Source: an uncultured Bacilli bacterium
GTDB taxonomy: Bacteria; Bacillota_I; Bacilli_A; RFN20; CAG-288
NCBI GenBank assembly: GCA_944332485.1
Contig: CALVKB010000002.1
Coordinates: 11,044-75,043, forward strand
Length of the DNA: 64,000 nucleotides
Direction of reading: 5' to 3'
The position numbers and the translations under genes were made by a program. Numbering within the stretch: the first letter of the stretch is position 1; every line of letters begins with the position of its first letter. The notes below the pieces were generated by a model, which saw only the letters and a program-made list of their open reading frames with translations, searched no databases and was not told the DNA's origin. Shown piece after piece: positions 10,752 to 41,121 of the stretch.

Positions 10752-11498
10752 ATGGAAACTCTTTTGAAAGATTACTTAAGTAAAATTCGTGACGAAAATT
10801 CAAACTACTTCGCTGGAAGTGCCTGTTTCTTAATCGAATACCTCGAATTATCAAAAATCAAATACATGTTCAATAATATCACATTGCCATCATTGGATAA
10901 AACAAGATATTATGTATTAAATATGATCGATGAAGATAGTAAATTATTCGATTTAACATCTTCAAATAATAAAGATAAGATGGTTGAAGATTATCAAATT
11001 GTAACATCATCAGTTGATAATATTCTAGGGCTGTATAATTCCTGCAAAGAATGTTCTACTATCATTAACAACTACCCTTATCTTTTGGAAGCTAATATCT
11101 ATTTGAAATCCCTTATCAACGATTCTTTACTTGAACATCCATATGATCTTAGCGACATTTCAGTCAACATTGATTTACCTTGCTTCACAACTGATGTGAC
11201 AAAATTAACAAAAAAGTATATCGCTTTAACTACCATAGCATTATTTGAAAAACTCGTAAAAAGAAAAAGAAGATTTAAAAATGTCGATAACTTACCTTTA
11301 GATGAAACACTGATATTGACTGATAAAATCTTAACTAATAGCAGTTATACAACTGAAGAACTTAACAAATTGAAAAAATATCTTTTGATAATTCAAGGAA
11401 AGATAAAATCATCTATTAAGAAAGATTATCTTCTCTGCTACAAAATCTTAAAACAAATCTTACAGGAGGAAGAATACAATGCACAATTATTTTTCTAA
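10752..11498 (+). CDS. hypothetical cytoplasmic protein (248 aa)
   Basis: Intact ORF with RBS TAGGAGA; no recognisable motif. Confidence 0.5.
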   Translation: METLLKDYLSKIRDENSNYFAGSACFLIEYLELSKIKYMFNNITLPSLDKTRYYVLNMIDEDSKLFDLTSSNNKDKMVEDYQIVTSSVDNILGLYNSCKECSTIINNYPYLLEANIYLKSLINDSLLEHPYDLSDISVNIDLPCFTTDVTKLTKKYIALTTIALFEKLVKRKRRFKNVDNLPLDETLILTDKILTNSSYTTEELNKLKKYLLIIQGKIKSSIKKDYLLCYKILKQILQEEEYNAQLFF

Positions 11499-20340: not shown

Positions 20341-21672
20341 CTACTTAGCTAATGTTCCAAGTGGATCCCATGGAAGCAACTCCACTGGTTTTTTAAGTAA
20401 GCTTTCAGCCTCAGTTTGATTTAAATAAACTTTCTTTATAACGGCTTGATAAACATAAAGATCAAAAAAGGAATCACTCATAACATAAAAACCTTTTCTA
20501 CCTTTATCATCACCCCAGGAATTTTCAATTTTCCATCTAATAGGCTTCTCATCTTCATCTAGCATAACACCTGTTATAACCATAGCATGGTTCATAACTG
20601 ATTCTCTGAAATTGAGTGCATCATCTTTGTTCATAGCAAAATCAACACCAAGCAAACTCTTGTAATCAAATAGTTTGTCATCCCAAATACCTTCAGTTCT
20701 TTCGCCATAATGGGAAACATCACTACCGAACCAAACAAGTTCACCTTCTTTAAGTGATTTTATGATTAGTTGTTTCAATCTTTCCATCTCAACATTCAAG
20801 TGAGTTACTGTCTTACCATTTATAACGTTTCCTAAATATTTCACAGTGTAGGTCTTGTTGAATGGTTTATCCTTTGTTGGAGCATTGACAACACTTTGAT
20901 ATTCATCGACCAGATCCATAACACCGTATTGTTTGGCAAATTCAACCGGTGTAATAGCATTTTCACAGACTACAACTTCACCATCTTTCGGTTTGTAAGT
21001 GAAAACAAATTTCTGTGGTGGAACACCGAACAAATTACAAAGCATAGTGTAAAATTTTGCCAAGTAAGTTTCCCTCAACTTCAAACATTCCTTTTCAGAT
21101 TTTTTGTGTGTTTCACAAGCGAATTGTCTTAATGTTGCATTGATCAATTTGTCAGAGATCAAAGTTTTATTACTTTGTGCTGTTTCAAAGAAATTTTCCT
21201 TTGGCATCACACCGTATTTTCTGACCAATGAAACGAACATATCCCACTGACCACCATCGCCAACAGGTGTATTTAAAATAAAATCGAGTTCTCTATCACC
21301 GATGTCTTTATCCTTTAAATCGATCAATACATTCATCACATAATTGCATTTTTCCAATTTGTCATAAAACGACATGTAATTTTGTGATAACTCAAATTGT
21401 TCTAAATTCAACTGTTTTGCTATATGCTCTCTTAACAAATTTAAGCTTGCAAAAATCCAGCATCTTCCTGATTGCTTTTGATTGCAAACGTTCATCGTTT
21501 TAACTTCAACATTAAAATAATCTTTAGTGTGGTCAGTTTGTTCAGATACATAAACCAAATCATTTATATCTGTCTTACTTAAAGCATGACGTTTTACATC
21601 ATTTGTTTTATCACTTAGATAATTTTTTCTTAAGGAAGTTAATTCCTCTTGACTGATTGCATAATTCTTCAT
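20341..21672 (-). CDS. pepC: aminopeptidase C (bleomycin hydrolase family, peptidase C1B)
   Basis: Active-site motif QKQSGRCWIFASLN. The start is revised to MKNYAISQEEL, which has GGAGG 6 nt upstream (the track start at 21690 lies upstream of that RBS). Confidence 0.85.
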   Translation of the reverse strand: MKNYAISQEELTSLRKNYLSDKTNDVKRHALSKTDINDLVYVSEQTDHTKDYFNVEVKTMNVCNQKQSGRCWIFASLNLLREHIAKQLNLEQFELSQNYMSFYDKLEKCNYVMNVLIDLKDKDIGDRELDFILNTPVGDGGQWDMFVSLVRKYGVMPKENFFETAQSNKTLISDKLINATLRQFACETHKKSEKECLKLRETYLAKFYTMLCNLFGVPPQKFVFTYKPKDGEVVVCENAITPVEFAKQYGVMDLVDEYQSVVNAPTKDKPFNKTYTVKYLGNVINGKTVTHLNVEMERLKQLIIKSLKEGELVWFGSDVSHYGERTEGIWDDKLFDYKSLLGVDFAMNKDDALNFRESVMNHAMVITGVMLDEDEKPIRWKIENSWGDDKGRKGFYVMSDSFFDLYVYQAVIKKVYLNQTEAESLLKKPVELLPWDPLGTLAK

Positions 21673-21739
21673 AAAAAACCTCCAAAACAATATTAATTAT
21701 ATTACTTTGAAGGTGTTAAATATTTAGAATGCGTTATTA

Positions 21740-22582
21740 TTAATAACTATATTTTCTTTGAGGTAACAAAAAATAACTTTGTTTGCTATTTATTTGAACT
21801 GTTTCATTCAAAGTGATCATGTATTCAGTTGATCCATTTTTAATAATAACGTAGTCACCAACTTTTTGCTGTGGATAATAACTAAAACTTCCATACCAGC
21901 TTTTGCCCATAGCATCACCATTAATACCTACATAATTCAAATATTCACTAAAATCCTCATAATGTGAATCTGTATAATAAACGGCATCTTTTGTATAGTC
22001 ATAATTACCTACAGAATATACCAATCTTATAGCACCACGATTTTGTCCAGCTTCTGTGAAACTTTGATCGTTAACGTATAAATCCATCTCTCTATAGGTG
22101 TAGTCCGGATCTAAAAGACCTTCCTTATTTTGGAAAACAGAGCTTCCATATAACATACAATTGCTACCTAATTGTGAGACACATGTACTACGACTACTAG
22201 CACTGTAATAATTACTTGGCATCTTCTTAAAAGCTATAACATAAGCCATAACATCCTGTTTTTTAATGTAATACTGATCTTCATAAATTGTTTTGGTTGT
22301 TCCAGGAATTGTGTAACTATCAAATTGTCTTGGAATAGCTAATTTTGTAATAGTTCTATCTAAATCCTCAGTTATCGAAGATGAACTTGATGAACTTGAT
22401 GAACTAATTGTACTTGTTATACTGGTTGCTGTACTATCTGAAACACTTGATGTTGAATCTAATGAAGTCGAGATTGAAGAATCCTGTGAGGAACTAGTTG
22501 AATCACTTTGAAAAAGTGAACATTGTGACAATGAAAAAGATAACATAGTAGCAAATCCTAATAAACTTAATATTTTATTCAT
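21740..22582 (-). CDS. secreted lipoprotein ribonuclease, barnase/RNase Sa (N1/T1) family, with a Ser-rich linker
   Basis: Lipobox MLSFSLSQCSLF and a poly-Ser/Thr linker. The catalytic region VFQNKEGLLDPDYTYREMDLY...NRGAIRLVYS...YYTDSHYEDF aligns to barnase FSNREGKLP...WREADIN...RNSDRILYS...YKTTDHYQTF. Confidence 0.85.
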   Translation of the reverse strand: MNKILSLLGFATMLSFSLSQCSLFQSDSTSSSQDSSISTSLDSTSSVSDSTATSITSTISSSSSSSSSSITEDLDRTITKLAIPRQFDSYTIPGTTKTIYEDQYYIKKQDVMAYVIAFKKMPSNYYSASSRSTCVSQLGSNCMLYGSSVFQNKEGLLDPDYTYREMDLYVNDQSFTEAGQNRGAIRLVYSVGNYDYTKDAVYYTDSHYEDFSEYLNYVGINGDAMGKSWYGSFSYYPQQKVGDYVIIKNGSTEYMITLNETVQINSKQSYFLLPQRKYSY

Positions 22583-22882
22583 ACTTAAACTCCATTTCTC
22601 TTAGGTATAAAAATTATAGATTATTAAAGCTTAAAAAACGAAATTATAATATTATAAAACAACTTTTATTATTAATATTAAATTGTAAAATATAAAATAA
22701 TATATGAAAATAGCAATATTTTATTCATTGTAATTTTGATGAAAGAATTTGACACAAAATCATAAATTCATAAACAAATTTTCATATATATTAATAATCT
22801 GTCATTTTACATAAGTAAACTTATTTAAAATTTAACATTCCTCTTTTGATATACTTTTAATTAACCGTAAAGGAGAGCGTTA

Positions 22883-24541
22883 ATGAAAAATATTTTCAAA
22901 TATTTATCCTCGTTTTTAATAGCTTCAGTGATGACAAGTTGTTCATTATTCGAAAATAATTCCTCAACATCTTCCACAACAACTTCCACAACATCTTCAA
23001 CCACCACATCAAGCACAAGTCAAAATATCACATCCAGTTCACATGAAGAAACACCAACACCATCAAGTAATCCAAGAATTAAAGAATATTCTTATGTGGA
23101 TGATGCAAACTACAACATTGTTGTTGCACACTCAAACTTCCAACTGAGTTCAAAACCGAATGAATTTACAGTTTATGCGGTTACTGATGTTCACGGAAAA
23201 ATTGATTTCCAAGAAGAACAATATACAGGATTAGCTCAACTTGATTACAACATCAAACATGATGCTAATTACTCTTTAGAAAATTCAATATTGATAAGTT
23301 CTGGTGATATGTACCAAGGTTATGGAATTTCAAACTACTATGAAGGAATTCCGATGGTTGATGTTTTCAATATGATGGGAATGGTTTCTAATACAATTGG
23401 AAACCACGAGTTCGATTGGGGTATTGATACATTAACTTCAACAGCAAAATACAGCTTAGATAATACAGGTTTTGTCACATTAGGTAGCAACATATACAAT
23501 CAAAAAACTAATCAAAAATTGGACAATGTCTATGATGCTCTTATCTATGATATGGACAATTTTAAAGTAGGTATTGTCGGAGTTATCGGTCAACTTGAAA
23601 ATTCCATATCAACAAAAGCTTTGGGTGATTACAAATTCAACACAGATGTTTCTAATACAACTGCTCTAGGTACAACATTGAAAAATACCTATGACTGCGA
23701 TTTGGTTGTCTTAGCTGCTCATGAATCTATCGATGCAAGCTTTATATCAACCATTTCAAATTCTATATCAAGTCCTTTTGATATCATCTTCGGTGGACAT
23801 AGTCACGCATTTAACGATATGTCAACCAACAATGTTCCATATTTACAAGCTTATTGTGATTCAAATGGATATTCTGTTGCTAACTTCACATTAAATAATG
23901 GCGATTATCACATGAATGAAGGTTACAACCAATATTTAACAAGCCCTACACAAATAGCAGATTCGCTTCTTGATCAGGACATTTTAAATTACATCAATTC
24001 AATTGATAGAAGTTTTTTAAATCGTGTTCTTGCAAATATAACCTTTGATTTAAAACGCTATCCTAGATCAGACGAAGATGGAAATTTGATCCAATTTATT
24101 CTCAAAGCAATGTATAACTCCTACAAGGATTTGCATCCGGAAGATACTAACAATATCATCACAATTCACAACAACGGTGGAGTTAGAGGTGATATCTACA
24201 AAGGAGATGTTACCGTAAATGATATTTTTACAGTTTCGCCGTTTGATAATAGAGTTGTTAAAGTCGTAAAATCCGGTGATAAAGTTTACCGTCAAACCGT
24301 CAATAACTCTTCAAATTCCTACTATACCAACGGAGTTGAAGTGACAAATTCCAGAAGTACAACCTGGACAGTTATAACAATAGATTATCTAACAACAAAT
24401 CAATCCTTCCCAGATCTTTATGATGCTAACAACGGTGGTGAAGATATACTTCCAAACGGCAATAGTTACTATATAAGAGACTTGTTGATAAATTATATTG
24501 ACAATACATTACATAACGTTATCAAACTTTCCGATTGCTAA
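22883..24541 (+). CDS. lipoprotein 5'-nucleotidase / 2',3'-cyclic-nucleotide phosphodiesterase family (calcineurin-like metallophosphoesterase)
   Basis: Lipobox VMTSCSLF with a Ser/Thr-rich linker; motifs VTDVHGKI (DxHG), SSGDMYQG, IGNHEFDWG (GNHE). Confidence 0.85.
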   Translation: MKNIFKYLSSFLIASVMTSCSLFENNSSTSSTTTSTTSSTTTSSTSQNITSSSHEETPTPSSNPRIKEYSYVDDANYNIVVAHSNFQLSSKPNEFTVYAVTDVHGKIDFQEEQYTGLAQLDYNIKHDANYSLENSILISSGDMYQGYGISNYYEGIPMVDVFNMMGMVSNTIGNHEFDWGIDTLTSTAKYSLDNTGFVTLGSNIYNQKTNQKLDNVYDALIYDMDNFKVGIVGVIGQLENSISTKALGDYKFNTDVSNTTALGTTLKNTYDCDLVVLAAHESIDASFISTISNSISSPFDIIFGGHSHAFNDMSTNNVPYLQAYCDSNGYSVANFTLNNGDYHMNEGYNQYLTSPTQIADSLLDQDILNYINSIDRSFLNRVLANITFDLKRYPRSDEDGNLIQFILKAMYNSYKDLHPEDTNNIITIHNNGGVRGDIYKGDVTVNDIFTVSPFDNRVVKVVKSGDKVYRQTVNNSSNSYYTNGVEVTNSRSTTWTVITIDYLTTNQSFPDLYDANNGGEDILPNGNSYYIRDLLINYIDNTLHNVIKLSDC

Positions 24542-25917: not shown

Positions 25918-26571
25918 TTATTTTCCTTCAGCTTCAAAGAAAAGATCATAAATTGTAAAGTAATCCAAATTTGTAATTATATTATTTGAATCGTTTTTAT
26001 CTACTAATGAAACAGTAATTAAAGAAGTTTCTGGTAAAAATATTTGTAAATCCTTCTTTATTTCAAAATTAGTAATACCATCTATGCTACCTTTACTACT
26101 ATAGTTCACAGTAATTGAACCAGATGGATCAGTTGGGACTGAACCAAGGTCATAGATATCATACAAATCACTCTCGTATGACAATGTCATCGGCATATCG
26201 AAACTTGTGTCACCAGTTTGAACTGTCAAAGTAAAATTGGAAGATTCACTCTTAATGTAAAAATGAGCATCTTTCAAAGCATCCAAAACTTTTGCTTTTG
26301 CATAATAGTAAGTGCAATTGAGAGCATCTTCAACAGAAGTTACTGGTTCTTGAGTAAAACTACTAAAATCGATCACATCCAAAGAATCTTTGATAATATC
26401 GTACAGAGTTTTATTATTAAAAATATTTCTCTTCAGATCATCCGCAGTAATTTGTTTTACTCCTGAAGCTTGAAAACTTAAAGATTTCAATTCTTCTTTC
26501 TGTGCACCAACTCCAGAGCAAGATGTCATAAAAAATGTCAAACACATAAGGGCTTTTGCTATTTTCATCAT
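25918..26571 (-). CDS. hypothetical lipoprotein (217 aa)
   Basis: Signal peptide + lipobox LTFFMTSCSGV; no catalytic motif recognised. Confidence 0.55.
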   Translation of the reverse strand: MMKIAKALMCLTFFMTSCSGVGAQKEELKSLSFQASGVKQITADDLKRNIFNNKTLYDIIKDSLDVIDFSSFTQEPVTSVEDALNCTYYYAKAKVLDALKDAHFYIKSESSNFTLTVQTGDTSFDMPMTLSYESDLYDIYDLGSVPTDPSGSITVNYSSKGSIDGITNFEIKKDLQIFLPETSLITVSLVDKNDSNNIITNLDYFTIYDLFFEAEGK

Positions 26572-33856: not shown

Positions 33857-34123
33857 ATGAAAAACAAAAAAGACAAAACTTTGAAAGTATTAACAAAAAA
33901 AGGACAGAAGATTTTTCTCATTATTGGGTTATTTTGTTTAAAAATTTTTATCTTCTGTCTTAGTTTTATTTTGATGGTTTTATTTGGAGCCATAGATTTT
34001 TCTTCAACTTTAGGTAATCAACTTGGAATTTATATTCCACTTGGTATATTGATTTTAGATTTCATAGCCTTTATCATTTCAAGTATAGTGATAAAAATAA
34101 AATGCTCTGAAACTATCGACTAA
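33857..34123 (+). CDS. small membrane protein (88 aa), hypothetical
   Basis: Two hydrophobic helices after a Lys-rich N-terminus. Confidence 0.4.
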   Translation: MKNKKDKTLKVLTKKGQKIFLIIGLFCLKIFIFCLSFILMVLFGAIDFSSTLGNQLGIYIPLGILILDFIAFIISSIVIKIKCSETID

Positions 34124-34623
34124 ATCATATTTATTTCCAAATCGGACATCTCGTAAATTTTATTCTGTTTTAATGACTTTTTAACATCGATGAATCTTTG
34201 GTTTGAACTTCCTTTAAAAAGCAAACTAAGATCCATCTTTTCATATATAAATTTTCCATCCACTAAATAATCGATGTAATTTAAAATTTCGTTAAAATTA
34301 CTTTTGACATCTTCAAAATCGTAACCGGTGTACAAAATGATATCCAAATTTGAAAATTTCTCTTTTATCATTTTACAAACAGACAATGCATCTTCGTATT
34401 GATCTAGTGGATCTCCACCAGTTAAAGTTACTCCGTCAATATGTTTGTCTTTTCTAATTAGTTCTTCTATTTTTTCAATGCTGTATTCTTTACCTTTTTC
34501 AAAATCCCAGGAGTTTGGATTATGACATTTGAAACAATGATGTGAACATCCTTGAAAAAAGATCGCTAATCTTATTCCAGGACCATCCACAATACTCTCA
34601 TCTACAATTCCGTATAGTCTCAT
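34120..34623 (-). CDS. nrdG: anaerobic ribonucleoside-triphosphate reductase activating protein (radical SAM)
   Basis: GPGIRLAIFFQGCSHHCFKCHNP (Cx3Cx2C cluster motif); immediately downstream of nrdD. Confidence 0.85.
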   Translation of the reverse strand: MRLYGIVDESIVDGPGIRLAIFFQGCSHHCFKCHNPNSWDFEKGKEYSIEKIEELIRKDKHIDGVTLTGGDPLDQYEDALSVCKMIKEKFSNLDIILYTGYDFEDVKSNFNEILNYIDYLVDGKFIYEKMDLSLLFKGSSNQRFIDVKKSLKQNKIYEMSDLEINMI

Positions 34624-34628
34624 ATTTA

Positions 34629-36971
34629 TTAATCATCAAGATTAATCGTGTGTTTTACCCTTGCTTTCTCCTCAGCTTTTTTAGCGTTGTTAAATCTATC
34701 AAGTGTTCCAACTAAATAACCTGTGATTCTCCTAATTCTTTCAAATTTACTCTGCTCTGTTTCTTTTCTGTGGCATTTTGGACATTCATTGTCGATGATT
34801 CCGTTATAACCACATTCCGGATCTCTATCAACTGGATGGTTGATTGCACCATAACCAACACCAGCATCATGCATATGTCTGACAACTTTCTCATATGCTT
34901 TTATATTTTTAGCTGTATCACCATCCATCTCGATGTATGTGATGTGACCGGCTAATGTGTATTTATGATATTCTGACTCAATATCAATTTTATCGAACAT
35001 TGAAATAGGGTAATAAACAGGAACATGCATTGAATTTGTATAGAATTCCTTGTCAGTAACACCTTCGATAATTCCGTATTTCTTCTTATCAAGTTTGATG
35101 AATCTTCCGGAAAGTCCTTCAGCGGGTGTAGCAATAATTCCAAAGTTGAGATTGTGCTTTTTAGTTTCTTTATCAGCACGATCTTTCATAAATTTAACAA
35201 TCTTCAAACCTAATTCCTGAGCTTCTTTTGATTCACCGTGGTGTTTTCCAATCAAAGCAACCAAAGCTTCAGCTAAACCGATAAAACCATAAGTCAAAGT
35301 ACCATGTTTGATAACTTCTTTAATCTCATCGTCAGCTTTCAATTTATCAGAATCAATCCACACACCATTACCCATCAAAAATGGCATATTTTTAGCTTTT
35401 CTGTGAGCTTGAACATCAAATCTATCCAACAATTGTTTGGTCACCAAAGTCATTGTATCATCGAGCTTTTTGAAGAACAAATCAACATCGTGATGTGATT
35501 CTATGGCTAATCTTGGCAAATTAATCGAAGTAAAAGAGAGATTTCCTCTACCAGAAGTTACTGCTTTATTTGGATCGTAATGGTTTTCAAAAACTCTTGT
35601 ACGGCAACCCATATATGCGACTTCATGTTCATAATCACCATATTTCCACTCTTTTCTTGCGTTGAATGGAGCATCTAAGAATGAGAAGTTAGGGAATAAA
35701 CGTTTGGATGAGCAAACCATCGATTCGATAAGTAAATCGTAGTTTGGATCTTCTTTGTTATAAGAGATTCCTTCTTTCACTTTGAAAATTTGAATTGGGA
35801 AAATAGGTGTTTCACCATCTCCTAAACCAGCTTCTGTAGCTCTTAATAACTGTTTGACAACCAAACGGCCTTCATTTGATGTATCTGTACCATAGTTCAA
35901 AGATGAGAATGGAACTTGAGCACCAGCTCTGGAGTGCATTGTATTCAAATTATGAATCAAAGCTTCCATAGCTTGATATGTTGCATCAACAATATCTTTG
36001 TTTGAATCTTTGATAATAGCCTTTTTACCTTTCTCCCAGGAAATTTCTGGAATTTCTTTTTCGAGTAACTTAAATGTTCTCTCTATAGATTCATCATTCA
36101 AATAACGAGGTTCTTCATCTTTAGATATGAGATCTTTGAAGATCTTTTTAAGTTTCTCTTCATAAGAATTTTCACCATCGGTTTCAAAATCAGCATATTT
36201 TATACAGTTGTTTCTGAATATTTTATTGAATGATTTGATAACACCTGGAGCCATAGCAAAATCGAAGTTTGGAATAGCTTGTCCGCCGTGCATATCATTC
36301 TGATTGGCTTGGATAGCTATACAAGCTAAGGCGGCGTATGTTCTTATATCATTTGGTTCACGGATGAATCCATGACCGGTTGAAAATCCGTTTTTGAACA
36401 ATTTTAAAAGATCGATTTGACAGCATGTCAAAGTCAAGGAATAAAAGTCCAAATCATGAATATGAATATCACCTTCTATATGTGCTTTAGCGATGTCTTT
36501 ATCAATCATATTATTAAGATAGAAATCTTTTGCGGTCTCAGAACCATATTTGAGCATAGTACCCATTGGGGCATCACCATCAACATTCGCATTTTCCCTT
36601 TTATCATCGTTGACTTTACTATCTTGGAATGTGATGTTTTTAATAGAAGTCATCAAACGCGATTTAGCTTCACGAATTTGATTTCTTTGAGCACGATATG
36701 AGATATATTCCCTTGCTGTTTTACTGTAATCTAAATCTATTAAAACTTCCTCAACGATATCCTGAACTTGCTCAACAGTTGGTAAGTTTTCCTTATTATC
36801 ATATTTAGCATTAATTCTTTTTACAACTTCATCGGTTACTTTTCCAATGGAAATGTCCTCCTGTGTAACTTCACAAGCTTTTTCAATGGCGGCCATTATT
36901 TTAGAAGAATCAAATTTGACAATTCTGCCGTCTCTTTTAACAATTTTCTTGATCATTTTAAATACCCTCAC
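34629..36971 (-). CDS. nrdD: anaerobic ribonucleoside-triphosphate reductase (class III)
   Basis: N-terminal ATP-cone (KIVKRDGRIVKFDSSKI), C-terminal Zn ribbon CPKCH and glycyl-radical motif RITGYLVG. Confidence 0.9.
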   Translation of the reverse strand: MRVFKMIKKIVKRDGRIVKFDSSKIMAAIEKACEVTQEDISIGKVTDEVVKRINAKYDNKENLPTVEQVQDIVEEVLIDLDYSKTAREYISYRAQRNQIREAKSRLMTSIKNITFQDSKVNDDKRENANVDGDAPMGTMLKYGSETAKDFYLNNMIDKDIAKAHIEGDIHIHDLDFYSLTLTCCQIDLLKLFKNGFSTGHGFIREPNDIRTYAALACIAIQANQNDMHGGQAIPNFDFAMAPGVIKSFNKIFRNNCIKYADFETDGENSYEEKLKKIFKDLISKDEEPRYLNDESIERTFKLLEKEIPEISWEKGKKAIIKDSNKDIVDATYQAMEALIHNLNTMHSRAGAQVPFSSLNYGTDTSNEGRLVVKQLLRATEAGLGDGETPIFPIQIFKVKEGISYNKEDPNYDLLIESMVCSSKRLFPNFSFLDAPFNARKEWKYGDYEHEVAYMGCRTRVFENHYDPNKAVTSGRGNLSFTSINLPRLAIESHHDVDLFFKKLDDTMTLVTKQLLDRFDVQAHRKAKNMPFLMGNGVWIDSDKLKADDEIKEVIKHGTLTYGFIGLAEALVALIGKHHGESKEAQELGLKIVKFMKDRADKETKKHNLNFGIIATPAEGLSGRFIKLDKKKYGIIEGVTDKEFYTNSMHVPVYYPISMFDKIDIESEYHKYTLAGHITYIEMDGDTAKNIKAYEKVVRHMHDAGVGYGAINHPVDRDPECGYNGIIDNECPKCHRKETEQSKFERIRRITGYLVGTLDRFNNAKKAEEKARVKHTINLDD

Positions 36972-37805: not shown

Positions 37806-38942
37806 TTAGTTTTGATAATATCTAACTGGTGTTATCAATTGCAGATTGCTCTCATCGCTTGAGACAACTCTGAACATTCTAACTTCACCGGAGAACAAGA
37901 TTGTAATATCATCACTTGTATGAGCTTTACAAGCATCTTTGACAAAATCTGCGTTGAAGTAGATTGTGAACTTATCACCTTCGAATTCGCAGTTATCCAA
38001 TCTTTCAACAGAATAACCATAAGATGGACTTCTTGATGAGATTTCGACCTTACTACCATCATAGACTAATTTTGCATTCTTAATGATACTTTTATCATCA
38101 CCGGAAACTATACAAACTCTATCTAAAATATCGACAAGTTCCTTTGAGGAACATTTAAGTTTATATGGGTAAACACTAGGTAAGATTTTTTCTGCTTCTG
38201 GGAATTCACCTGGAATTGTCTTTGCACTAATTGTGACAGAACCAACAGTGAAGCTAACTTTATCAGCACCAACACGGATTCTAACAACTGGAAGATGTTC
38301 CAATTTGTTTATAACTGATAAAACTTTCAATGAGCAGTTGAAAGAGACCATGACATTGCTTTGTAAAGGTAATGTTTTTCTAGCTAATCTGCAGGTGTCA
38401 GAAGCTGTGAAGGAAATCTTATGATCAAAACATTTGATGTTGATTCCTAAAAACATATCTCTGTTACTTTTTTGTGCAACAGCAAAGTAAGTTGCATCAT
38501 ACAATGTCTTGAAGTCTTCTGGAGAAAGTTCAATCTCTTCACCAACATGTGTACCAAGTTCAATATCAGGATATTCATTGCCAGGTTTGGTGTTGATATT
38601 GTAAGTTGTTCTATCATCGGATATTGTCAATAAAGAGGAATCCACTTGCTCAAGAGTTATCACTTCACCTGCAACTTTGGCAATAATCTCACGTGATAAT
38701 TTAGCAGGAAGTTGAATGGAACCTTCTTGAGAATCTAAAATAACTTCATTACCATCGGTATCTTTGTTGAATTGATTAACTTTGATTGTTATTTTTCCAT
38801 CAGAAGCAAGGATGTTGCATCCTTCATCTGTAATTGTTAATAAAAAGTTTAAAAAACAAGCTTCAGTAGATTTACTAGGGATTGCATCCATAGCGATGTT
38901 TAACATTTTTAATAATGATTGTTTTTTAATTACTAATTTCAT
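37806..38942 (-). CDS. dnaN: DNA polymerase III beta subunit (sliding clamp)
   Basis: 378 aa. N-terminus MKLVIKKQSLLKMLNIAMDAIPSKSTEACFLNFLLTITDEGCNILASDGKITIKV with a three-domain beta-clamp layout; divergent from dnaA. Confidence 0.8.
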   Translation of the reverse strand: MKLVIKKQSLLKMLNIAMDAIPSKSTEACFLNFLLTITDEGCNILASDGKITIKVNQFNKDTDGNEVILDSQEGSIQLPAKLSREIIAKVAGEVITLEQVDSSLLTISDDRTTYNINTKPGNEYPDIELGTHVGEEIELSPEDFKTLYDATYFAVAQKSNRDMFLGINIKCFDHKISFTASDTCRLARKTLPLQSNVMVSFNCSLKVLSVINKLEHLPVVRIRVGADKVSFTVGSVTISAKTIPGEFPEAEKILPSVYPYKLKCSSKELVDILDRVCIVSGDDKSIIKNAKLVYDGSKVEISSRSPSYGYSVERLDNCEFEGDKFTIYFNADFVKDACKAHTSDDITILFSGEVRMFRVVSSDESNLQLITPVRYYQN

Positions 38943-39099
38943 TTTATATACCTCATATAACTTAAATTATTATATCAATAATAAGTGCAATTCTTGTGGG
39001 AATGAATTTAAAAGTGAACTGATTTTTCAGAAACTGAAAGTTTAATTTAAATTATTTTTAATCTTTAAATTTTATATTCATTATTATGTTTTAATTTTC

Positions 39100-39700
39100 T
39101 GTTAATAACTCAAAAAAATGAATATATAAAGAAAAAAGGTTGTTTTGGTTGTTAGTAAATTGTTGATAATCGATATAAATTTGTTAGTAAGTCTGTTAGT
39201 AAGTTGAGTTACTAACAACTTGAAAAGGGTGAAAATTAGCTTAAAAAAGAAACTTGAAAAATTTATAAGAAAAAAATGATGAAAAAATTGTAAAAAGCAC
39301 TCCGTGAAATAATCAACTTTTATTTCACGATGAAAATAATTAAAAAACGAAGAAACAACTTAAAAATACTAACACGTTGCAAGTTAGTAACATGATTTAC
39401 TAACAACAATAAATATATAAAAATTCAAAATATTAAAAAAAAGTATCATTTTTGGATTTTTTATCAACAATTTATTCACATGAAATAAATTCGAAGTTAC
39501 AAACAAATTACCAACATGTTAGTAACTTTTAAAAAATTCGATAACACCTTTAAAATTCTTTAAAATAAATGCTTTTTTCAAATTTCAATTGTTAGTAACT
39601 TGTTGATAACTTGTTAGTAAGTGAAAAAACGATTGATAAATGATTTTTAATAGGTGAAAAAAGCACTATTTATATCGAAAAAACACGTTAGTTTTAATGT
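39100..39700. promoter_or_regulatory. oriC: DnaA-box cluster and AT-rich unwinding region between divergent dnaN and dnaA
   Basis: Perfect TGTTAGTAA at 39150, 39182, 39194, 39517, 39590 and 39612 (forward) and at 39209 and 39397 (reverse). Near copies at 39367 and 39382. TTATCAACA-type boxes at 39161 (rc), 39461 and 39601 (rc), and TTATTCACA at 39472. AT-rich stretches at 39225-39360 and 39410-39460. Confidence 0.75.
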
Positions 39701-39729
39701 TATAATTTAGAAGAAATAAGAGGTTATAT

Positions 39730-41121
39730 ATGGAAGAAGAAATCAACTCATTGGATCTTATTTGGGAAAATGTAACAAATCACTTGCAGGAAATTTTCGG
39801 ACGTCCATCATACGAAGCATATATTGAAAATATATGCCATCTTATGAAAATTGAGAAAAACAACGCCTATGTTGTTTGTGATCAAAAAGTTTCACTTAAG
39901 ATTCTCTCTCAGGATAGTCAGCTTGATAAATTCAAAAAAGCATTTGAGGAAGCAACTGGAACAAATTACAACGTTTTATTTTATTCTCAAAAAGATTACG
40001 TCAATTTAGACAAAAAGAAAGAGAAGAAAGAAACAAGCAAACCGGATCTTTTTGATCAGTACATCATCAGCCCAAAAGATACTTTTGATACTTTCGTGGT
40101 TGGTCAATCGAATAAACAAGCTTATTTAGCTTGTAATTTGCTTTGCGAAGATAAAGTTACATTTAACCAATTATTCATATATGCCGATTCTGGATTAGGA
40201 AAAACACACTTACTTTCCGCAATTTACAATAAATATAGGGAAGTTCATCCTGATAAGAAGATTAAATACGTTTGTATTAATGATTTTATAGAATTGTACA
40301 TACGATACGTCAGAGAGGAACAGAATAAAACAGGTGATGCAAAAGTAAGTGATATAAAAGATTATTTTGTTGATTTGGATTGTGTTTTATTCGATGATAT
40401 TCAATTTTTAACTGCTAAAAGAAAAACCCAAGAAGTTTTCTTCGATATATTTAACAAATTGCAGATGAGAAATGTCATAGTTGTTATGACATCAGATTGC
40501 TCACCGGATCATATTCAAGATTTAGATAAAAGATTAGTATCAAGATTTTCCTCTGGTTTATCCTGTTTTATCAAGATTCCAGAAAGATCTACAATGATCG
40601 ATATTCTCAAAAAGAAGATTGAACTTAACGGATTAGATATAAACATGTTTCCAGATGAAGTTTTGGATTACATCGCTTCTAAAAATTCCAACAACGTCAG
40701 ATTGTTGGAAGGTGCTTTGAATAGACTATTATTCTTATTAGCTTTACATAAGGATGTAGATAAAGTTGATATGAAATTTGTCCGTATGGCTTTTGAAGAT
40801 AACCGAAGTTACTCCAAAGAGCTTGATCAAGATCATGTTTTGGATGTTGAGGATATCATCTCCGAAGTTGCAAATCAGTTCAATTTGACAATAGGGCAAC
40901 TTAAATCGAAAGTTAGAACCTCACAGATTTCTTACGCACGACAAATCGCTATGTATTTATGCCGAGATCTTTTAAATGAAAGTTTGAACGATATAGGAAG
41001 AGTTTTTGGAAAAGACCATTCCACCGTTTTGGATGCTTGTAAAAAGATAACAAAAAGGATGGAAGAAGATGTCAATTTGAAAAAGACAATCAAGAAGTTG
41101 AAGGATAAATTGAAAAAATAA
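39730..41121 (+). CDS. dnaA: chromosomal replication initiator protein DnaA
   Basis: AAA+ Walker A YADSGLGKTHLL, Walker B VLFDDIQF, sensor and box VII regions, and a C-terminal DNA-binding domain (IAMYLCRDLLNESLNDIGRVFGKDHSTV). Confidence 0.95.
   Translation: MEEEINSLDLIWENVTNHLQEIFGRPSYEAYIENICHLMKIEKNNAYVVCDQKVSLKILSQDSQLDKFKKAFEEATGTNYNVLFYSQKDYVNLDKKKEKKETSKPDLFDQYIISPKDTFDTFVVGQSNKQAYLACNLLCEDKVTFNQLFIYADSGLGKTHLLSAIYNKYREVHPDKKIKYVCINDFIELYIRYVREEQNKTGDAKVSDIKDYFVDLDCVLFDDIQFLTAKRKTQEVFFDIFNKLQMRNVIVVMTSDCSPDHIQDLDKRLVSRFSSGLSCFIKIPERSTMIDILKKKIELNGLDINMFPDEVLDYIASKNSNNVRLLEGALNRLLFLLALHKDVDKVDMKFVRMAFEDNRSYSKELDQDHVLDVEDIISEVANQFNLTIGQLKSKVRTSQISYARQIAMYLCRDLLNESLNDIGRVFGKDHSTVLDACKKITKRMEEDVNLKKTIKKLKDKLKK

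Follow-up and report, generated by a model that had tools for sequence, protein, structure and literature searches.

A predicted surface-tethered barnase-family ribonuclease encoded beside a 5′-nucleotidase lipoprotein in uncultured gut Bacillota

We examined a divergent gene pair in a 64-kb stretch of contig CALVKB010000002.1 from an uncultured Bacilli bacterium (positions 11,044 to 75,043 of the contig; the whole of this stretch is referred to here as the window). One gene, an open reading frame (ORF) at 21740–22582 on the minus strand, encodes a 280-residue ribonuclease (RNase) of the barnase family; the other, on the plus strand, encodes a 5′-nucleotidase-family protein. The coordinates of the pair and the 300-bp gap given in a preliminary description of the locus were exact. 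The window is read without problems by the standard bacterial code, and its G+C content is ∼30%. The features of the pair are as follows.

22520..22582, minus strand: RNase residues 1–21, signal peptide (MNK plus a hydrophobic core) with a lipobox-like LSQC and Cys21, read from the sequence.
22361..22519, minus strand: RNase residues 22–74, a low-complexity tether rich in Ser/Thr (66% over 53 residues).
21944..22360, minus strand: RNase residues 75–213, an N-terminal β-hairpin (∼75–108) and the barnase core, from PF00545, alignments, AlphaFold and Foldseek.
21743..21943, minus strand: RNase residues 214–280, a C-terminal extension defined by subfamily alignments, with no Pfam match.
22583..22882, no strand: AT-rich divergent spacer of 300 bp, with both ribosome-binding sites read from the sequence.
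22883..24541, plus strand: 552-residue dimetal phosphoesterase lipoprotein of the 5′-nucleotidase/UshA family, from PF02872, Metallophos and sequence motifs.

The RNase was assigned to the barnase family by several routes. With HMMER, the check proposed in the preliminary description, residues 119–213 matched Pfam PF00545 with a score of 38.4 bits (cut-off 24; E = 1.8e-9), and a phmmer search of the Protein Data Bank (PDB) retrieved binase. In an alignment with barnase, binase and RNase Sa, E154 (in FQNKEG), R182 and R186 (in RGAIR), and H207 and Y208 (in DSHY) were invariant; these residues are equivalent to barnase E60, R83, R87, H102 and Y103, respectively. E165, in the YRE motif, aligned with E73 of barnase and binase, RNase Sa being out of register at that column. 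All of the catalytic residues except E154, and thus including E165, were also invariant in 15 diverse relatives from the same subfamily. An AlphaFold model of residues 75–280 had a mean pLDDT of 75.8, with values of 87–95 in the core except for one block at 77. When this model was compared with the PDB using Foldseek, all 34 of the significant or top matches were barnase or binase with a probability of 1.00; two of these were engineered barnase fusions, and the plain chains gave TM scores of 0.64–0.69 on the target. These data show membership of the family and an intact catalytic set, as the preliminary description had claimed, and the protein is predicted to be an active endoribonuclease of the barnase/binase type.

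The guanine-recognition loop of barnase (FSNREG, containing S57-N58-R59-E60) aligns with FQNKEG in the window RNase, which is thus probably guanyl-preferring; in the Clostridia branch of the subfamily a longer insert replaces this loop. The position of barnase K27, which contributes to transition-state stabilisation, is occupied by Ala128, so that the lysine is not kept, and the mature domain is near-neutral rather than cationic (20 Lys and Arg versus 22 Asp and Glu). Both features would fit a catalytically weak or inactive protein that binds RNA or nucleotides at the cell surface. We regard this as very improbable, because the general acid, the general base and the two arginines do not vary within the subfamily and because a basic residue conserved in the subfamily as Arg or Lys (R131) lies three residues, i.e. 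one helical turn, beyond the K27 position. Lys27 is not a defining residue of the wider barnase family.

The architecture around the core sets the window RNase apart from barnase, binase and balifase (PF00545, N1/T1 superfamily), which are secreted, guanyl-preferring enzymes. All have the same fold, equivalents of E73, R83, R87, H102 and Y103, and an FxN[RK]EG loop, and they have in common Sec export and an assumed role in scavenging nutrients (phosphate). However, the window protein is only ∼23–26% identical to them, and has a lipoprotein-type signal and a Ser/Thr tether where they are freely secreted. It also differs in its N-terminal hairpin, its C-terminal EYLNYYGGWG extension, its substitution at K27, its near-neutral charge and its cysteines at positions 134 and 142 of the core, barnase having neither. 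The hairpin (residues 75–108) was confidently modelled and is absent from barnase. The preliminary description was right about a linker of ∼50 Ser/Thr-rich residues, and a 9-nt in-frame length difference from a sister lineage falls within this tether. It had also described a ∼70-residue C-terminal domain. An extension of this size is indeed present, but it is not a single domain: a part of ∼25 residues following the catalytic histidine (EYLNYVG...GKSWYGSF; pLDDT ∼73) is found throughout the subfamily, whereas the tail (residues 252–280) is specific to the lineage and has a pLDDT below 50, the last ∼30 residues being poorly modelled.

Of the export signal and lipobox attributed to the RNase in the preliminary description, the former held up and the latter only in part. 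We used a PROSITE PS51257-type test requiring an n-region, an h-region and [LIVMFWSTAG](2)-[LIVMFYSTAGCQ]-[AGS]-C; the window sequence, SLSQC, has Gln at −1 and fails both the PROSITE and G+LPP rules. A canonical lipobox was present in 63 of 83 RNase homologues, and the window RNase and nucleotidase share the sequence CSLF from the lipobox cysteine onwards. Lipidation of the RNase at Cys21 is nonetheless likely.

The divergent 5′-nucleotidase-family lipoprotein proposed in the preliminary description was found with all of its expected domains and motifs. It matched PF02872 at 47.4 bits (cut-off 23.6) and Metallophos PF00149 at 22.5 bits (cut-off 21.5), and its metal-ligand motifs are complete (DVHG102, GDMYQG141, GNHEF173 and GGHSH304). 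It has a signal peptide, a canonical lipobox (VMTSC, Cys20) and a Ser/Thr linker extending to approximately residue 75. NCBIfam scores were 120.5 bits for the 5′-nucleotidase half of YfkN, 86.5 for UshA and 36.5 for CpdB, all far below the equivalog cut-offs, and the protein appears closer to the UshA/5′-nucleotidase type than to CpdB. Its relatives in the PDB are distant (3ivd was best, with E = 7.8e-13; others are NadN, UshA and CD73). Thus, it has both domains, all the metal-binding motifs and the extracytoplasmic location in common with Bacillus subtilis YfkN and Escherichia coli UshA and CpdB, and differs in its ∼25% identity to any solved member and in its predicted lipid anchor on a Ser/Thr linker. 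The start of this gene (region 22883–22933) is placed at Met17 in most public contigs, giving 536 residues and losing the lipoprotein signal peptide. The 552-residue start at 22883 is probably the correct one, as a good ribosome-binding site (AAGGAGAG) precedes it.

In the spacer, this Shine–Dalgarno site before the ATG at 22883 is matched by GGAG before the ATG at 22582 on the minus strand, and the promoters of both genes presumably lie in these 300 bp. Promoter-like matches in the spacer were no commoner than in shuffled sequence, and a terminator scan was also at chance level. A riboswitch or other RNA element was considered and dropped, Rfam giving no family for the spacer; repeats resembling a Pho box were candidates by eye only, in a region too AT-rich to judge.

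Whether the two genes belong together was assessed in the genomes of relatives, using 81 non-redundant loci with 1.22 Mb of flanking sequence. The order nucleotidase, RNase and pepC (aminopeptidase C) was identical in the sister lineage, at 92.5% nucleotide identity, and the pair was present in every contig of the window species and of that lineage. For a 58% identical RNase gene, that of L009, the divergent neighbour 79 bp upstream is a Metallophos gene; a second, tandem RNase paralogue (L009:1555-1989) lies downstream and is interrupted by the contig end. At L020, the genes for two lipoproteins, a nucleotidase and an RNase, lie in tandem, 44 bp apart. The two families were also seen joined in two separate metagenome-assembled genomes (MAGs), where single lipoproteins of 926 residues (L016:6798-9575) and 916 residues (L048:7727-10474) combine Metallophos, 5_nucleotid_C and barnase-like domains with the catalytic residues kept, an OB-fold lying between them in L016 only.

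Looser clusters point the same way. In six Clostridia loci the nucleotidase gene lies 2.7–5.5 kb from the RNase gene, in a cluster comprising the RNase, surE, two DHH/DHHA1 (NrnA-like) genes and an HD hydrolase. The cluster at L085 additionally carries udk (uridine kinase), a deoD-like gene of the purine-nucleoside-phosphorylase type, deoC and tdk (thymidine kinase), and at L043 the HD, DHH, DHH, surE and RNase genes all lie in the same orientation. Across the 81 loci, surE was found near the RNase gene in 40 and DHH/DHHA1 genes in 37, counts that are not independent, since a common ancestry is probable for many of the Clostridia loci. A 5′-nucleotidase homologue lay within 10 kb of the RNase gene in 10 of the 81 loci; ten such genes in 1.22 Mb would be several-fold above expectation if typical genome densities are assumed as the background.

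Together, these arrangements show that the two families are repeatedly coupled in genomes. Because a fusion and repeated, differently arranged linkage are both seen, they support a shared role of the RNase and the nucleotidase in salvage of nucleic acids and nucleotides. Adjacency in this lineage could instead be without functional meaning, with the two enzymes acting on unrelated substrates and the nucleotidase, for example, on host ATP, AMP, NAD or UDP-sugars. In keeping with this, conservation of the pair, put forward as a check in the preliminary description, was confirmed in close relatives (92% nucleotide and 58% amino acid identity) and failed further out: in the next Bacilli relatives, at 36% RNase identity (L001, L011–L015), the nucleotidase neighbour is missing and the RNase gene is flanked by pepC and pyrG; pepC is the more deeply conserved neighbour. 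The mismatch in specificity discussed below points in the same direction. Nevertheless, the fusion proteins in two MAGs and three other arrangements of independent origin (a divergent pair, a tandem pair and clusters with the genes 2.7–5.5 kb apart) argue against chance adjacency, and we consider it unlikely.

The reading that we favour, with moderate confidence, is that a tethered surface RNase and a nucleotidase lipoprotein together harvest nucleosides and phosphate from RNA outside the cell. The RNase would be exported by Sec, probably lipid-anchored at Cys21, and held off the cell surface by its ∼50-residue Ser/Thr tether. It would cleave extracellular RNA to short 3′-phosphorylated or 2′,3′-cyclic products. 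The divergently encoded 5′-nucleotidase-family lipoprotein, anchored in the same way, would strip phosphate from nucleotides, and the nucleosides and phosphate would be taken up. We infer the RNase activity and base preference, the lipidation, the phosphoester cleaved by the neighbour and the uptake.

A number of observations weigh against this reading. Barnase-type RNases release 2′,3′-cyclic phosphates and 3′-phosphates, whereas the neighbour scores as UshA-like (86.5 bits) over CpdB-like (36.5 bits); direct substrate channelling is therefore unproven. Of the RNA-to-nucleoside pathway envisaged in the preliminary description, the functional link stands, on the fusions at L016 and L048, the adjacency at L009 and L020 and the Clostridia clusters, but the chemistry shows a gap, a 3′-phosphate product being offered to what looks like a 5′-nucleotidase. 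Pfam identified no nucleoside transporter in the 64-kb window; a candidate nucleoside ABC transporter at 44.5–50.6 kb, guessed from ORF sizes, proved to consist of dnaX, holB and PSP1. To these are added the non-canonical lipobox, the absence of the pair at 36% identity, the assumed background and shared ancestry behind the counts, and the nonsense alleles, described below, which suggest that the RNase is dispensable in some settings.

There is a precedent for such a pair in Mycoplasma bovis, where the nuclease MnuA and a 5′-nucleotidase, likewise surface lipoproteins, act in nucleotide salvage (PMC11729948). The mycoplasma membrane nucleases are of the TNASE_3, EEP or YqaJ type, and a 2025 review lists none of the barnase type (PMC12115388). 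The systems also differ in that the window genes are adjacent, and fused in relatives, and in that their host uses the standard genetic code and is only a distant relative of the mycoplasmas. Surface nuclease plus surface nucleotidase for salvage is an established concept.

A salvage role is not the only use for such enzymes. In staphylococci and streptococci, pairs of a nuclease and an adenosine synthase act on the host, and the window pair could similarly degrade extracellular or immune-stimulatory RNA and make adenosine. Both enzymes are predicted to be surface-exposed, the source is apparently gut-type metagenomes, and the 5′-nucleotidase of Mycoplasma is a virulence factor (PMC11729948). 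On the other hand, the clusters of the relatives are rich in cytoplasmic salvage or catabolic genes (udk, deoD, deoC, tdk, surE and nrnA-like), which points to metabolism, and nothing points to the organism being pathogenic. A host-directed function accordingly seems to us improbable, and the harvesting of nucleosides and phosphate remains the better account of the pair.

We noted that the RNase gene is naturally interrupted in several assemblies. In the sister lineage, one contig (L007) carries an intact gene, and two long contigs from other samples carry premature stops: TAT to TAG at codon 111 (L008:9650-10483) and CAA to TAA at codon 134 (L095:2515-3348). Apart from these two sites, the L008 and L095 alleles are identical. 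A third stop, GAA to TAA at codon 76 (L097:836-1591), is the only base in 756 that differs from the 36% identical RNase gene of L001, in an assembly with a coverage of ∼2×. There are thus three independent premature stops, and each allele is otherwise identical, or almost so, to an intact one. Since 4–7% of random substitutions in these genes would create a stop, the joint chance is ∼2e-4, a post-hoc figure that depends on assembly accuracy. The nucleotidase gene is intact in both L008 and L095.

Other apparent disruptions were discarded. Phase variation by poly-A slippage at IKKQ was considered for the split gene of L008, and the alignment showed a clean TAT to TAG change with no frameshift. 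P0200 (147 residues; L099:1075-1518), a candidate third disrupted allele of the sister lineage, is a chimeric metagenome scaffold that fuses the 5′ half of the RNase gene to unrelated high-GC sequence and so imitates a truncation, and P0186 and L098 are incomplete because they reach a contig end. In field isolates of M. bovis, truncated mnuA occurs and truncated 5′-nucleotidase never does (PMC11729948). Therefore, the nonsense alleles with an intact nucleotidase, together with this parallel, suggest that the nuclease is dispensable or costly and the nucleotidase is not.

A cost raises the matter of self-protection, and the preliminary description had pointed out that no gene for the inhibitor barstar adjoins the RNase gene. 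This was borne out across the window, where none of 48 ORFs of 70–200 residues matched PF01337 at E ≤ 0.018. When two barstar seeds were used for a jackhmmer search, 89 loci plus the window yielded just one barstar, at L040. It served as a positive control: this barstar (PF01337, E = 1.7e-11) lies directly downstream of the sole barnase in the set that is canonical and not a lipoprotein. Around the other RNase genes, 103 small ORFs were scanned with Pfam, and at most that one barstar emerged. A conserved small inhibitor of another type was also sought, and all-against-all clustering of 145 flanking ORFs returned only surE and its shadow ORFs as a large family. As judged from these flanks, the lipoprotein subfamily as a whole, i.e. 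the window RNase and ∼80 relatives, has no linked barstar.

The preliminary description had treated the missing barstar as a puzzle, which it need not be. Neither the barnase nor the binase gene shares an operon with its inhibitor gene, balifase being unique in this respect (PMC5021464); non-linkage is therefore normal and says little. A barstar gene may also lie elsewhere in the host genome, beyond the 64-kb window that was searched. Most likely, protection of the producer needs no linked inhibitor because the pre-protein would be exported unfolded.

The L040 pair and the polymorphic toxin systems, which contain barnase-fold domains with barstar immunity (PMC3482391), have the same catalytic domain as the window RNase, and one could suppose that the latter is an antibacterial or polymorphic toxin whose immunity protein is unlinked or unlike barstar. 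The nonsense alleles, as a hint of cost, would be compatible with this. However, Pfam shows no delivery or pre-toxin domains, only the lipoprotein anchor; the flanking ORFs include no conserved small neighbour family and at most one barstar; and the neighbours are metabolic. We find a toxin role highly unlikely. A separate suggestion, to which we attach a low probability, is that the lipoprotein barnases with the hairpin and EYLNYYGGWG form a distinct clade, with hundreds of species-level matches in gut Bacillota, that may dispense with barstar, protecting themselves by folding or activation only once exported and lipidated or by autoinhibition through the extensions, with the nonsense alleles reflecting residual cost.

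The subfamily itself is extensive. An exhaustive HMMER search gave 149 cluster representatives at E ≤ 0.001, and in the nearest homologues a lipoprotein signal, an N-terminal hairpin and an HYxDFxEYLNYYGGWG motif recur. Two motif patterns, scanned against GTDB species genomes, returned at least 439 confirmed matches. All 80 retained loci came from uncultured Bacillota, nearly all of them MAGs, the isolate labels indicating gut and faecal samples, and the C-terminal motif HYxx[FY]x[EQ]Y was present in 78 of 83 recovered RNase ORFs. Thirteen public metagenome contigs encode the exact window protein, and its neighbours are the same in all of them; the best genome match was only 36% identical. By these comparisons, the RNase belongs to a large, previously undescribed lipoprotein subfamily of gut Bacillota, and its combination of anchor, tether, two extensions and genomic setting appears to be a variant that we did not find described in the literature. 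In the RNase-gene flanks of 46 of the 81 loci we also observed homologues of a lipoprotein of ∼1000–2000 residues, directly adjoining where inspected; this protein is absent from the window.

L085:5387-8713, L030:4170-7433 and L043:7833-11120, with 43 other loci: lipoprotein of ∼1000–2000 residues, aBig_2 being its only Pfam match.

One further gene lies next to the pair and is not regarded as part of the RNase/nucleotidase system.

20341..21690, minus strand: pepC, aminopeptidase C (PF03051, E = 8.5e-149).

It lies 49 bp downstream of the RNase gene on the same strand and adjoins the RNase gene in L001, L007, L008, L013 and L015, neighbouring even the 36% identical RNase genes (L001, L013 and L015) with differing relative orientation. 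The adjacency may reflect old synteny or a functional link. A predicted lipoprotein of 217 residues with the lipobox FMTSC is also encoded near the pair (25918–26571, minus strand) and matched no Pfam family.

The rest of the window bears on the host. Named relatives of its DnaA are at most 43% identical (MAGs labelled ‘Bacilli bacterium’ and ‘Erysipelotrichaceae bacterium’); this, with the 36% for the best genome match to the RNase, indicates that the host is a deep, poorly sampled Bacilli lineage. dnaA itself is at 39730–41121, a cumulative GC skew minimum falls at ∼38–39.7 kb, and an rnpA-type ORF, dnaX and holB are close by; the chromosomal replication origin is probably within the window, in the area 38000–41121. 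nrdD (anaerobic ribonucleotide reductase, 780 residues) lies within 34120–36971, beside an ORF with 4Fe-4S and radical-SAM domain matches that was taken as its activase nrdG. The presence of nrdD and the putative nrdG indicates an anaerobe able to convert ribonucleotides to deoxyribonucleotides.

No established principle is changed by these findings. If the proposed reading is true, a functional label would become available for many ‘hypothetical’ lipoproteins, and the subfamily would lend itself to studying how cells make a highly toxic RNase fold with no inhibitor gene next to it. The L016 and L048 proteins are natural Rosetta-stone fusions of nucleotidase and RNase that would be useful for biochemistry. 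Many uncultured gut Bacillota would then feed extracellular RNA into nucleoside salvage by means of a tethered barnase-fold enzyme, a role that mycoplasmas fill with lipoproteins of the thermonuclease or EEP type.

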